From positions 1 to 45,659 of the forward strand of contig CAXHJY010001628.1 of NCBI GenBank assembly GCA_964016885.1: DNA of 45,659 nucleotides. Reading direction: 5' to 3'. Numbering within the stretch: position 1 is the first letter of the stretch; each line of letters opens with the position of its first letter. A model generated the notes under the pieces. It made no database searches. It was not told the DNA's origin and was given only the letters and a program-made list of their open reading frames with translations. The position numbers and the translations under genes are program-made. Positions 14,678 to 35,499 of the stretch are shown in pieces. This DNA is from Eledone cirrhosa (Eukaryota).

Positions 14678-14899
14678 ATACATATATATATAATATATAT
14701 ATATATATAGAGAGAGAGAGATAGAGAGAGAGAGAGAGAGAGAGAGAGAGAGATACACCATTCATACATATATTCATATATATATACACACATACACACA
14801 TATACACATACATATACACACACATATATACATATATATATATATATATATATATATATACATATACACATATACACATACATATATATACATATATAT

Positions 14900-16803
14900 A
14901 TCATCATCATCATCATCATCATCAACGTTTAACGTCCGTGTTCCACGCTTGCATGGGTTTGGACGGGGGTAGTCCCCACTTGAGGCAAGAGTGATTGTCT
15001 TGCTCGCATAGGACTGTCTGCAGGTTTTCTACAGTTGGATGCCCTTCCTAACACCAACCACATTTACAGTGTGGGTCTGGGAGGTTTTTACCGTGTTGCC
15101 TACACGGCACATTACAGCGTGGACTGTGTGTTTTTTTGTCGTGACACCTACACGATCTCATTTGTTTCGGCCTCGATGGCGCGGCACCAACATAACTTTA
15201 CATAGAACGGGGTGGTGTGGATCGGGTGGGGGTGGTGGGACGGGGTGTATTTGTTAGAGATGCCTACTGGCTGGAGTAGGTTTTACTATATATTTAGGTA
15301 AGGCGGGTCTTCTCTGTTACTGAGTACCGCCAAAGGTCTCGGTCCAGTGACATTGTCTTGGAGAGGTGTAAGTGTGTGATGTCGGAGTTTATCAGCTCGT
15401 CCCAGGTTTTTCTAGGTCTGCCTATTCCGTGACTACCGTCTATCTTTATTGCCCTGCACTTTGTTTATACAGCTATCGACTTTCATGCGCATCACGTGTC
15501 CATACCAACGTAGCCTTCTCTCGAGTAGACAACATCTGATCCCTCTTATCTCTAATTTATTCCTTAGTTCGTTTATGCTTTGCCGTTCACGTATATTACT
15601 GTTACACATCCAGCGGAGCATGCAAGCTTCGTTCCTCTCTAGTCTGCGTATATCCTCTGCACACAATGCCCAGGTCTCACTGCCATGCAGCATTGCTGTT
15701 CGTATGCAGGCATCGTACAACCTGCCTTTCATTTTTAGTGAGAACCCTTTAGCAGCTAATAGTGGTATAAGCTCTCTGAACTTTTTCCAACCAGTTCTGA
15801 CTCTAGCTACAGTACTTTCAGAGCACCCTCCCCCACTGCTGATTTTATCGCCCAGGTAACGGAAGCTGTCCACTATTTCTATAGAACCCTCTGCGCAATT
15901 GAAAGAGCTAGTATTTTGTGGGCACTTGCTGCTACTTATTGCACCAGAGCACCGGCCACATGTAAAATCTATGTTCTTAGTTAGCCTACCTGTGATCCCA
16001 CTACATCTTTTATGCACCCATACTTTGCATTTAGGACATAAAATGGAGTTTCTACCTACGCCTTTCCTACACACCGAGCACGACCATTTCCCAGAAGGGA
16101 CCGCCGCCTTGTTTTCTTTCCTACAAACTAGTACTTTGGTCTTAGCCAGGTTAATTTTAAGTCCTTTTGACTCTAGGCCGTGCTTCCATGTTTGGAATTT
16201 CTTCTCTAGCTCGGCCATTGATTCCGCTATGAGTGTCAGGTCGTCTGCGTATAGGAGTTCCCATGGGCAGCCTGTCTTGAACTCCTCTGTTATGGCCTGA
16301 AGGGCAATAATAAATAGTAGTGGACTGAGAACAGAGCCCTGATGGACGCCGACTTTTACGCTAAACTCTTCACTATATTCGTTGTTAATTCTAACCTTGC
16401 TGACTGTTTCTTTATACATGGCTTGTATAGCCCTCACAAGCCATTCGTCAACGCCTAGTTTTCTAAGAGCCCACCAGATAATGGAGCGGGGGGACTCTGT
16501 CGAAGGCTTTCTCCAAGTCGACAAAAGCTAAGTAGAGGGGTTTACCTTTAGCTAGGTACTTCTCTTGTAGTTGTCGTACTATGAAAAGAGCGTCTGTGGT
16601 ACTTTTGCCTGACACAAACCCGAACTGCATTTCATCTAGGTCAATTCTCTCTCTGATTAGTTGCGCTATTACTCTTTCCGTGACCTTCATGACCTGGTCG
16701 ATTAATTTAATGCCTCTATAGTTACTCCTATCTAGGGCGTCTCCTTTACCCTTATAACAGTTAACGATGATGCTGCTATGCCAGTCCTTCGGAACAACCC
16801 CGT
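14900..16803 (-). mobile_element. RTE-B copy 2 (5'-truncated, frameshifted RT)
   Basis: RT motifs NYRGIKL...YADD...RWYGHV; 1-bp homopolymer indels near 15464 and 16490; (TCA)n tail on +. Confidence 0.92.
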
Positions 16804-17081
16804 TTATATATATATATATATATATACACACACACACACATATATACATGCACATATACACACACATACACATACAAACATATATACACAAATACATACA
16901 CACATATACACACACACCCATATATATATATATATACATACATATACACACACACATATACACACACATACATATATATATATATATATATATATATACA
17001 TAAATATATACATATATATAAAAACATACACACATATACATACACACACACACACACACACACACACACATATATATATAT

Positions 17082-31159: not shown

Positions 31160-31750
31160 AAACTTTTTTTGTTTAATATAAGGAATTGTTTATTCATTAT
31201 TTGTTTAATATTTTATATATATATATATATATATATACATATATATATATATATCCATATATATACAAATATACACATACATACACAGACCTATACATAA
31301 ATATACACATATATATACAGACATATAACGCATATATACACACATATATACATATATACATATATATACATATATATATATATATACACACACGCGCATA
31401 CACACATACACACACACACACACACACAAATATATATACACACTCTCTCTCACGCACATATATATATACACACACACACATACACATATATACATATATA
31501 TACATATACACATATATATATATATATATATATATACACACATATACATATATATATACATACATATATATACATACATATATATACATACATATATATA
31601 TATATATATATATATATATATATATATATATATATATATACACATACACACACATATATACATGCACATACACACACATATATATACACATACACACACC
31701 TGCCCACACAACTATATATATATATATACACACACAATCGGCTCTATCAG

Positions 31751-34700
31751 TAATCTCGGAGCCCCTCCTGAAGGACGCAATTAACTTTGCCAGGAATTCT
31801 ACCACCATTACCGATGCTGAGCAAGTTGTTATCCTCCACGCTCGTAAGACCTTTCTATACCACGATGGATCTTACTGGATCAACAAGAAATCTCAGACCC
31901 CATTTGACGTTAGCATGGGTGCGAGTGACTCGGCTGAAATTAGCGACCTTGTGGGCCTGTACATCCTACATAACCTGAAGAACCTCTTTACCGGCCTAAC
32001 GGGAGGTTTATACCGAGATGACGGCCTCTTCGCCCTGCATAAGGTTAACCCCAGAACCACCGATGGGTTTCGGAAAAACTTAAGCTCTTTCTTCTCTAAT
32101 CTAGGATTTAGTATAACTATAGATTCTAATTTGACTAGGGCCAACTTCTTAGATGTCACTCTCGACCTAGATACTTCCCTCTATTACCCGTACCACAAAC
32201 CTAACGAGTCCCTTAAATATATTAATGTTAATTCAAACCACCCCCAAAACATCACTGATAACCTAGTAAAAAGCGTCTCTATTAGAATATCTGGCCTCTC
32301 CGCCAACAAAGATATTTTTAATGCATCTGCCTCCTACTACAATGACGCCCTCGCCCGTAGCGAATTTAAAGATAAGATAACTTACCTAGAAACCACAGCA
32401 AGATTGCAGAGGAGGAATAGACATAGGCAGATTAGCTGGTACAACCCTCCCTTCAATAGAGAGGTATCTACTCCGATAGCTAGGATTTTCTTCACTTTAC
32501 TGAAATTACACTTCCCCATACAACATAGGTACTACACCATCTTTAATAAGAACACTATAAGACTGTCTTACTCCACCACACCTAACCTAGCTAGGAATAT
32601 AGCCAACCACAATTCTAAATTAAATAAGCCAACCACCTCCGAAACCAATCCCCGGACTGGGGCTCTATGTAATTGCCTAAATAAGGAAGCATGCCCACTT
32701 GAAAACAAATGCCTCACAAATGACATCGTATACAAATGCGATGTCATCTCAGGCACCGAGGATTGCAAAAAAACTTACATCGGCATGACCTCCAACAACT
32801 TTAAGACCCGTTGGTATGCCCATACCCACTCCTTCAGTAGACCGGATAAATCAAATCAGACAACACTCGCCTCCTACGTTTGGGACCTCAAAAGGAACTC
32901 CACCCCCTTCACGCTTAAATGGAAAATACTCCAGAAAGCGTGCTCTTACAACGGAGGACACAAGGGCTGCGACCTTTGCATTTCAGAGAGCTACGAAATT
33001 TTATTCGCCAAGGGCCCGCTACTGAACAAACTCTCTGAACACTGCCCGAACTGCATGCACAAGAACTTTGCAACTTTCAAACACTTTAAGCCAGTGTTAA
33101 AGCCCGATGGCTAAAAACGACCTCCCCCTATTGGCCCCTATACCTCCTCCCCACCCTACCCCCACCCCTCCTCAACCTGAAATACGGCCACTATGGTTAT
33201 GTGAGTACCTCTTTCGTATCTACATTTTCTGCCTGTAGAGGTGTCTTTATGTGCCTGCGTATATGCGTATATTTATTGAGTACCTATTTATTTGTATGTG
33301 TATAAATTTGTTTGTATGTGTGTATATGTATGTGTATGTGTATATATAAGTATATGTTTGTGTGTATATGTGTTTTATGTGTGTATATTTATGTATGTAT
33401 ATGTATGTATATATGTGTATATATATATATATATATGTGTATATATATGTATGTGTATGTATGTATGTATGTATGTATGTATGTGTATGTATGTATGTTT
33501 ATGTATGTATGTGTATGTATATATGTATATGTATATATATATATATATATATATATGTGTATGTATATATGTATATGTATATATATATATATATATATAT
33601 ATATATATGTGTATATGTATATGTATATATATATATATATGTATATATATATATATATATATGTATGTATGTGTGTATGTGTGTGTGTGTGTGTATATAT
33701 ATATATATATATATATATATATATAGTGTGGGCAGGTGTGTGTATATGTGTATATATATGTGTGTGTATGTGTATGTATATGTATATATGTGTGTGTATG
33801 TGTATATATATATATATATATATATATGTATGTATATATATGTATGTATATATGTATATGTGTGTATATATATATATATATATATATGTGTATATGTATA
33901 TATATTTGTGTGTGTGTGTGTGTATGTGTGTATGCGCGTGTGTGTATATATATATATATATATATATATGTGTATATATGTGTGTATATATGCGTTATAT
34001 GTCTGTATATATATGTGTATATTTATGTATAGGTCTGTATGTATGTGTATATTTGTATATATATGGATATATATATATATATATGTATATATATATATAT
34101 ATATATATATATATTTATATATATATATATATATATATAAATATTTATACATGTGCATGTGTATGTGTGTGTGTGTGTGTGTATGTATATGTGTATATGT
34201 GTGTGCGTGTATATATATATGTGTGTATATGTATGTGTATGTATGTATATATATATATATGTATATATATATATATATGTATACATGTATATATGTATGT
34301 ATGTATGTGTGTGTGTGTATGTGTATATATATATGTGTGTGTGTATGTGTGTGTATGTGTGTATATATATATATATATATATATATATATATGTATATAT
34401 ATATATATATATGTGTATGTATATATGTATATATATATATACATGCGTGTATGTATGTGTGTATATATCTATTTTTATATGTGTATGTGTATATGTATGT
34501 TTGTATGTATGTTTGTATGTGTATATATATGTATATATGTATATATATATATATATATGTATATATATATGTATATATATATATATATGTATATATATAT
34601 ATATATGTATATGGATATATATGTATATATGTATACATATATATATATATATATATATATATGTATATATATATATATATATGTATATATATATATATAT

Positions 34701-35499
34701 ATATGTATATATATATATATATGTATATATATATATATATGTATATATATATATATGTATATATATATATATGTATATATATATATATGTATATATATAT
34801 ATATGTATATATGTATATATATGTATATATATGTATATATGTATATATATGTATATATGTATATATATGTATATATGTATATATATATATGTATATATGT
34901 ATATATATATATATGTGTGTGTATATATATATATGTATATATGTATATATATATATATATGTGTGTATATATATATATATATATATATATATATATATAT
35001 ATATATATATATATATATATATACATGTGTGTGTATATATATATATATATATATGTGTGTATATATATATATATGTGTGTGTGTGTGTGTGTATGTATGT
35101 ATATGTGTGTATGTTTTTATATATATGTATATATTTATGTATATATATATATATATATGTATATGTGTGTGTGTATATGTATGTATATATATATATATAT
35201 GGGTGTGTGTGTATATGTGTGTATGTATTTGTGTATATATGTTTGAATGTGTGTGTATATGTGTATGTGTGTGTATATATATATATATATATATCTATAT
35301 ATATATATGTATATATATGTATGTGTATATGTGTATATGTATATATATATATATATATATGTATATATGTGTGTGTATATGTATGTGTATGTGTGTATAT
35401 ATATATGAATATATGTATGAATGGTGTCTCTCTCTCTCTCTCTCTCTCTCTCTCTCTCTCTCTCTCTCTCTCTCTCTCTCTCTCTCTCTCTCTCTCTCT
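31751..35499 (+). mobile_element. Penelope-like element PLE-B (5'-truncated) with microsatellite-mosaic 3' region; true 3' end not identified
   Basis: RT/GIY-YIG ORF, C-rich UTR at 33115-33290, then a GT/TA mosaic whose inverted copy lies upstream in pieces. Confidence 0.75.
31753..33114 (+). CDS. Penelope-like RT (partial) + GIY-YIG endonuclease
   Basis: ISEPLL...[37 protein letters not shown], CNCx5CPLxxx[18 protein letters not shown]...E...LN...CMH. The N-terminal 189 aa of the listed ORF are microsatellite or filler. Confidence 0.9.

Follow-up and report, generated by a model that had tools for sequence, protein, structure and literature searches.

Are the CA/TA microsatellite patches scattered among retrotransposons in a contig of Eledone cirrhosa unrelated simple repeats, or pieces of one sequence that was doubled in inverse orientation and later broken up? 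We addressed this question in GenBank assembly GCA_964016885.1, contig CAXHJY010001628.1, positions 1–45,659 of the forward strand (this whole 45,659-nt stretch being the window), which has 25% GC and is composed of TA/CA microsatellite mosaics and young retrotransposons. RTE-A, RTE-B, PLE-A and PLE-B are working labels taken from a preliminary description of the same DNA, PLE standing for Penelope-like element. We found that four CA/TA mosaics are one inverted copy of 33690–35500, with its inner end beside a 5′-truncated PLE-B and its continuity broken by three insertions. The parts of the two arms are as follows.

14678–14899, minus strand: left arm piece 1, the outer end (TA, (GA)n and CA/TA mosaic), pairing with ~35300–35510.
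16804–17081, minus strand: left arm piece 2, pairing with ~35062–35292 (exact matches of 88 and 65 nt).
18748–19180, minus strand: left arm piece 3, pairing with ~34116–34570 (exact matches of 69, 49, 41, 41, 39 and 38 nt).
31217–31736 (from ~31214), minus strand: left arm piece 4, the inner end, pairing with ~33690–34110 (exact matches of 68, 55, 48 and 47 nt).
31737–31752, no strand: 16-nt junction filler between the left arm and the PLE-B open reading frame (ORF), with no match of at least 9 nt elsewhere in the window.
33286–33689, plus strand: unpaired TG-polar mosaic (75 G and 0 C across 33285–33700).
33690–35500, plus strand: right arm, an uninterrupted mosaic with (CT)n at its end, serving as proxy for three empty sites.
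34560–35040, plus strand: right-arm block lacking a partner, starting ~25–45 nt from the 5′ junction of RTE-B copy 3.

The preliminary description had paired the four mosaics with the reverse complement of 33.7–35.5 kb, and local matches located all four at the places it gave, the best for each being 14700–14899 to 35301–35473 for piece 1 (no mismatches in 127 anchored nt), 16804–17081 to 35043–35294 for piece 2, 18749–19180 to 34116–34570 for piece 3 and 31217–31736 to 33710–34106 for piece 4. The reassembled left arm (four pieces, 1456 nt) aligned to the reverse complement of 33640–35530 with 1245 matches, 24 mismatches and 29 gap events. Raw alignment score, however, speaks against the pairing in that it cannot tell true from false: with the pieces wrongly ordered it reached 1845, as against 1779 for the correct order, and per nt it was as high as 1.71 in pure-TA mosaics compared to 1.18–1.63 for the true pieces. 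Such scores are useless because TA repeats align to anything; in self-BLAST of the window, the unmasked run was swamped by TA repeats and the dust-seeded run missed the inverted arm.

Arm order and specificity were judged instead by chains of landmark exact matches, a match being informative if it was a maximal exact match of at least 30 nt with at least six departures from pure TA. Between 33690–35500 and the rest of the window there were 19 informative matches, all 19 inverted and 18 of them inside the four mosaics, with correlated positions (Kendall tau −0.79, p = 2 × 10⁻⁷), while six control mosaics yielded 0, 0, 0, 0, 2 and 4. With the pieces in their true order, the best colinear chain covered 804 nt from 16 of the 18 matches, top among the 24 orders (runner-up, 679). 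Direct orientation gave a chain of 0, none of 300 block shuffles exceeded 139, and 10 unrelated mosaics, tried both ways round, reached no more than 31 nt, with one match at most. Landmark colinearity thus passed the comparison with shuffled and unrelated mosaics that had been proposed for it.

The pairing is interrupted, a point absent from the preliminary description, by ~480 nt present only in the right arm (~34560–35040), representing either a left-arm deletion or a right-arm expansion, and by an extra block of 68 nt in the left arm. Landmark matching rejected a palindrome continuing past ~14678 or ~35500, the mosaic at 14055–14322 being no continuation of the arm. Starting right at the right-arm end is a homogeneous satellite, ((AT)nGTCT)n and then ((AT)nGT)n (35500–39985), with a G/C polarity flip near 39170, which may be an expansion seeded from that end.

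What separated the four pieces, and when? The sequences between them comprise two retrotransposon copies and a second, palindromic PLE insertion.

14900–16803, minus strand: RTE-B copy 2, a 5′-truncated non-long terminal repeat (non-LTR) retrotransposon with an (ATC)n tail, in a (TA)n run of the left arm and absent from the right arm.
17082–18747, minus strand: RTE-B copy 3, 5′-truncated, with RVT_1 and PHD matches and junctions defined against the empty site.
19181–26010, minus strand: PLE-A main copy, a PLE with Hydra-clade motifs, the whole insert being absent from the right arm.
26009–31216, plus strand: PLE-A inverted 5′-truncated copy, head-to-head with the main copy (99.46% over 5218 nt; 3 internal substitutions).

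In the right arm the three insertion points, each a (TA)n run, are uninterrupted, and both RTE-B copies and the 12-kb PLE-A palindrome are missing from it; the inverted pair therefore predates all three insertions. This agrees with the earlier proposals that the arm was split later by these elements and that the right arm approximates their empty sites. Divergence was compared in blocks anchored landmark to landmark, with one aligner and the 480-nt gap excluded. The B-arm blocks had 11 mismatches and 24 indels in 1070 nt and the PLE-A mosaic 1 and 7 in 2178 nt, that is, ~20-fold more mismatches (Fisher p = 4 × 10⁻⁵) and ~7-fold more indels (Fisher p = 4 × 10⁻⁷), so that the PLE-B arms are, as had been claimed, the more diverged on a like-for-like count, some of their mismatches probably being slippage products. 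A point on the other side is that gene conversion can homogenise intact palindromes, so that divergence becomes a less reliable clock; the nesting is unaffected. As to the insertion order put forward in the preliminary description, nesting and like-for-like divergence both place the inverted pair first, whereas the three inserts, not being nested in one another, cannot be ranked. PLE-B is oldest within this nest but not in the window, where RTE-B copy 4 is separated from the other copies by 23–25 substitutions. That the left arm received all three later inserts carries no significance, the two-sided probability being 1 in 4.

Bearing on the putative RTE type, a label of the preliminary description, are the RVT_1 and PHD matches, the (ATC)n tail, the flank resembling a target-site duplication (TSD), and PF03372, which many full-length relatives carry. 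Copy 3 is flanked on each side by a complete (TA)7 target run (13–14 nt, TSD-like), and copies 2 and 3 differ by 2 substitutions in 1664 nt. An unlikely alternative, independent of the arm's origin, would have copy 3 as a local templated duplicate of copy 2, made by fork switching in TA runs with the loss of 480 nt, leaving only two later events. Copies 2 and 3 are indeed mutually closest among the four RTE-B copies, sharing two states against copies 1 and 4, and lie 278 nt apart in the same orientation, with the 480-nt gap beginning near the copy 3 5′ end. The full (TA)7 run on both sides of copy 3 is, however, what target-primed insertion predicts; moreover, the gap starts beyond an intact landmark rather than at the copy 3 junction, the ATC tails differ between copies 2 and 3 (8 versus 7), and only 3 substitutions separate copies 1 and 3.

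Copy 2 (14900–16803) has four single-base homopolymer indels that are not in copies 1, 3 and 4 and may be assembly consensus errors. These suggested errors, the lack of any read seen across the junctions in an overlay of other sequencing data (see below) and the failure of raw scores to separate true from unrelated mosaics could be taken to favour an assembly artefact (a fold-back long-read chimera) or chance low-complexity similarity, to which we give hardly any credence: the landmark tests exclude chance, and a chimera of that kind would have duplicated the inserts as well, without producing ~1% mismatches, 24 indels and a TSD-like flank.

PLE-A shows what an inverted PLE insertion looks like in this window. 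Its ORF (26010–23599) is open over 803 aa, ~10 N-terminal residues short compared to relatives, and is followed by 4.4 kb of sequence including a 2.2-kb microsatellite mosaic. The inverted copy is element sequence, with part of the ORF and a ribozyme motif; it meets the main copy at a head-to-head junction (26009/26010) and stops 134 nt before the main copy 3′ end. The whole is bordered on either side by an (AT)11 run, corresponding to the TA run at the empty site; because the post-ORF sequence is missing from that site, it was imported: PLE-A is an imported 12 kb with a 2.2-kb mosaic in each arm and 4.4 kb of post-ORF sequence. Near its ends are two predicted ribozyme motifs.

19369–19512, minus strand: type I hammerhead-like motif of PLE-A with stems I–III, found by descriptor scan.
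31019–31159, plus strand: inverted copy of this motif, in which a substitution (site 19371) cuts stem I from 10 to 7 pairs.

The motif lies 4.1 kb past the stop codon, beyond the mosaic and ~190 nt from the 3′ end. It is a predicted ribozyme with a long stem II (115 nt between the cores) and a fold z of −5.5, stem III being unformed in the minimum free energy structure. An Rfam scan of the window gave, among the 150 of 257 rows listed, only low-complexity miRNA-family matches below threshold and no PLE-A hammerhead. Two further observations concern PLE-A. Between its RT (reverse transcriptase) and nuclease is an N/K/T-rich insertion of ~90 residues (residues ~465–555; 24345–24620), absent from most aligned relatives and resembling the asparagine-rich inserts of Adineta vaga Penelope ORFs; the inverted copy begins inside it. 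The mosaic tail appears by eye to contain an internal duplication (20640–21700, mirrored at 28800–29900), with the ACCACTAC landmark present twice in both arms.

Is PLE-B an element of the same kind? Its ORF and unique UTR form two adjoining segments.

31753–33114, plus strand: PLE-B, 5′-truncated, an open 453-aa ORF of RT with C-terminal GIY-YIG and Hydra-clade motifs.
33115–33285, plus strand: unique 3′ untranslated region (UTR) of the PLE-B family, with a C-rich tract and no hammerhead core; organism A depth is high up to 33283.

A Pfam search found no match for the PLE-A or PLE-B ORF, and the domain assignment therefore rests on motifs and alignment. The two ORFs are 41–42% identical. Both carry RT and then GIY-YIG nuclease (YRDD, then VY..YIG) in a single ORF, with a CxCx5C linker, no CX2-5CxxC, and terminal CxxC and CxH; CCHH was judged by cysteines, of which PLE-A has one and PLE-B two between VY and YIG. 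RWR and DKT occur in PLE-A, while PLE-B is truncated before these positions. Relatives are 35–56% identical, the named ones including coral and hemichordate elements. PLE-A and PLE-B thus carry Hydra-clade motifs and, by motifs and alignment, appear to be Hydra-clade PLEs. Passages on this clade, in which CxCx5C replaces CX2-5CxxC, describe the same CxxC and CxH near the end, the same lack of CCHH, RWK and DKT motifs in the N-terminal half, and insertion at (TA)n (Craig et al., 2021; PMC8557442; statements on published systems refer throughout to passages of the papers cited). A motif search in the passages of the Craig supplement gave no link to Hydra-1_Obim.

We overlaid PLE-B on organism A, a coded sequencing source (best DNA share 0.64, with no RNA source listed) that may differ in species or individual. 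The family is abundant there (1655 contigs, depth climbing toward the 3′ end), two contigs diverge from the window sequence before 31753, in accordance with the 5′ truncation, and the copy in the window differs from most family reads at at least 9 of ~1530 positions among the rows listed, organism A being maybe another species. The overlay (31660–33380) gave no joint at the arm/ORF junction among the 19 of 327 loose ends listed, and covered the sequence between the repeats of 31660–31741 and 33306–33380. The descriptor scan found no hammerhead for PLE-B in 33112–39985 or the left arm. Among 42 relatives with at least 300 nt downstream, 25 have a hammerhead +61 to +515 past the stop and 17 have none detected; as the 170-nt unique UTR lacks one, the PLE-B 3′ end may therefore be further out. 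In 79 metagenome loci (ORF end placed in 75) there was no comparable long inverted tail, which is uninformative since the contigs are short.

How, then, did the inverted arm arise? Its inner end and the PLE-B 5′ truncation are only 16 nt apart, which ties it to the PLE-B insertion. PLE-A and PLE-B share a layout in which a main copy is followed by a spacer without a partner (1.5 kb in PLE-A and 1.95 kb in PLE-B) and the distal part is repeated in inverse orientation at the 5′ truncation, with 3′ ends outward; in both, a C-rich tract leads into a mosaic whose sense strand is rich in TG. We therefore favour, as the probable origin, a PLE-B insertion that laid down the inverted copy head-to-head, with an RNA-borne tail that would be either family UTR or donor-specific captured flank; the middle case of host DNA captured at the donor locus, as described for Pen1_Av (PMC3846280), is counted under this RNA-borne origin. 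A smaller head-to-head insert stands at 39985–40308, with arms of ~120 nt, a short spacer, a ~60-nt unpaired extension and the apparent 3′ half of a hammerhead only; a different PLE family probably inserted there as a very short copy.

The events would have begun with the GIY-YIG nuclease nicking a (TA)n site and cDNA running from the 3′ tail to 31753. A second synthesis, by other-strand priming or fold-back, would then have copied the distal 1.8 kb again, running the opposite way, and short filler would have joined the two ends. Priming would probably have been internal, or the copy 3′-incomplete, since a ribozyme end is lacking. The two RTE insertions and the PLE-A palindrome later landed in TA runs of this arm. 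Two-strand priming is plausible because purified PLE protein cleaves and extends both strands in vitro and initiates internally on its RNA (PMC11167929); PLE self-priming has also been proposed (PMC3846280).

Several findings weigh against an RNA-borne tail. The arm starts ~400 nt past the last unique UTR base and is mosaic only, with no coding or unique PLE-B sequence and no ribozyme motif, and neither B arm ends in a unique terminus or ribozyme, unlike PLE-A. Ribozyme absence is in itself weak evidence, since 17 of the 42 relatives lack one and the descriptor missed a core at 12749–12771 that was found by regular expression. No second copy of the tail was seen, the organism A overlay having left out the two repeat segments named above. 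Published Hydra families measure 1.1–3.0 kb, compared to the ~4.6 kb or more needed here (PMC8557442). The inner end of the arm, moreover, falls at a (TA)16 run (33694–33725), a possible true insertion site, and extends ~8 nt of CA past it. Thus, of the preliminary claim of an inverted copy of the PLE-B 3′ region, the inverted arm itself stands, 16 nt from the 5′ truncation, but not its identity as PLE-B's own 3′ region, which we infer by analogy with PLE-A.

These points lend some weight to an in-place duplication, a possible though less probable origin in which PLE-B ends at a (TA)n run within 33418–33725 and 33690–35500 is host microsatellite, copied in inverse orientation at integration by fold-back of the truncated cDNA onto the primer strand; the nesting and order of the later insertions would be unchanged. 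The pure mosaic devoid of PLE-specific sequence or ribozyme, the inner end at the (TA)16 run, and the compactness and (TA)n targeting of Hydra families (PMC8557442) all fit this origin. Pure (TA)n runs start at 33418, 33532, 33578, 33624 and 33642 in the unpaired mosaic, with the sixth at 33694, so that there is none in the first ~130 nt after the unique UTR; these 130 nt, which share the polarity and C-tract lead-in of PLE-A, argue against it, as do the same layout in PLE-A of demonstrably imported sequence and the extension of the arm ~8 nt past the TA run. Moreover, passages from full-text literature, mostly open papers, include no PLE inverting its target flank.

An RNA-borne tail is also to be preferred to an inverted duplication by repair or replication, with template switching between TA/CA repeats and PLE-B as a mere neighbour, which we consider very unlikely. 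TA/CA mosaics offer abundant microhomology and the arms contain large indels (480 and 68 nt), but only 16 nt separate the breakpoint from the point of PLE-B 5′ truncation, and the head-to-head layout recurs in two more inserts of the window.

Whichever of these origins applies, masked annotation would call the four patches unrelated simple repeats and miss an insertion now spanning 21 kb. From one haplotype alone, the intact right arm yields both the empty sites and the order of insertion, and repeat 'junk' can in this way record order; given other copies or empty alleles, such loci can separate RNA-templated doubling from fold-back onto target DNA. We put forward more tentatively that Hydra-clade PLEs of this host might generally carry kilobase microsatellite mosaics in their 3′ regions, start priming inside such mosaics and duplicate them each time they insert in inverted form. 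A substantial share of the genome's anonymous simple repeats would then be PLE-derived mirror pairs and landing pads for RTE and PLE. If so, each mirror pair would be a built-in empty-site control for insertion order and slippage rates.

Other features of the window lie outside the arms, one of them abutting the left arm.

14323–14677, minus strand: RTE-A 3′ fragment abutting the left arm outer end, 96.7% identical to 1431–1728 (3 substitutions).

An exact tandem duplication of 466 nt (467–1432; 2.1 copies, 100% identical) joins an RTE-A 3′ part directly at ~1432, and each unit carries, in minus orientation, a clean hammerhead motif of type I (799–762 and 1265–1228), resembling a retrozyme or a tandem pseudo-long terminal repeat (pLTR). 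A weak hammerhead-like core (5185–5238, plus strand) occurs in a unique stretch between TA arrays (4390–5432), and ~200 nt of unique sequence between TA arrays (5725–5925) have what we take to be a tRNA/SINE-like look (SINE, short interspersed element). The segment at 12643–13251 (minus strand) is a degenerate fragment with a hammerhead core (12771–12749) and stops in all three minus frames, presumably akin to the 3′ end of a Penelope/Poseidon-type element. At 13870–14054, a 36-nt inverted repeat encloses a 58-nt microsatellite spacer, its right arm continuing into ~90 nt of unique sequence.

Where does this locus stand among known systems? L1 twin priming is alike in joining an inverted segment at the 5′ truncation, but it inverts a different part of the RNA without duplication, whereas here the same distal segment occurs twice. 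How PLEs form inverted copies is still an open question (PMC8557442; PMC11167929). Inverted PLE copies, TA targeting, nesting and the carriage of simple sequence repeats (SSRs) by Penelope are already published; inverted 5′-truncated copies adjoining the 5′ end are known for PLEs generally (PMC8557442; PMC3846280) and, within the Hydra clade, for the family Penelope-13_HM (PMC8557442). The A. vaga Penelope elements, especially Pen1_Av, are similar in their head-to-head inversion, nesting in other elements and long spacer between ORF and 3′ terminal repeat, attributed to captured host DNA (spacers of 0.9–1.5 kb before the 3′ pLTR); their inverted parts, however, are mostly ~200-nt pLTRs and their spacers unique DNA, whereas the arms here are 1.8 and 5.2 kb and wholly or largely microsatellite (Arkhipova et al., 2013; PMC3846280). 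In penaeid shrimp, with Penelope and RTE-BovB, recently moved Penelope copies are likewise reported to carry their internal SSRs along and are associated with long (AT)n, but passages of that account contain no inverted doubling of an SSR tail, empty-site proxy or insertion order (Yuan et al., 2021; PMC7878876). Nor did passages from a full-text literature search, covering few subscription papers, describe an inverted PLE arm of microsatellite alone or its use as an empty-site proxy.

The closest likeness is to the Hydra-clade PLEs (Craig et al., 2021; PMC8557442), with which both elements share the CxCx5C, CxxC and CxH motifs, the C-terminal GIY-YIG without CCHH and the head-to-head layout of an inverted copy at the 5′ truncation (5′-truncated element sequence in PLE-A), and PLE-A also the (TA)n target, RW[K/R], DKT and the hammerhead-like motif near the 3′ end. 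They differ in that the PLE-B inverted copy is microsatellite only, with no ribozyme or pLTR found, and that the unpaired 3′ extension measures 134 nt in PLE-A compared to 30–40 nt published. Such a tail of 30–40 nt is optional in PLE inverted-repeat insertions, and Hydra-1_Obim is listed without pLTR (PMC8557442); self-matches of the window likewise included no direct pLTR. Finally, the ribozyme lies close to the stop codon in the listed Hydra-clade families, whereas in PLE-A the two are separated by 4.1 kb that include the 2.2-kb mosaic (PMC8557442). The 4.4 kb of microsatellite-rich 3′ sequence imported by PLE-A far exceeds published Hydra consensus lengths, and this long microsatellite-filled 3′ region is the most unusual solid result of the analysis.

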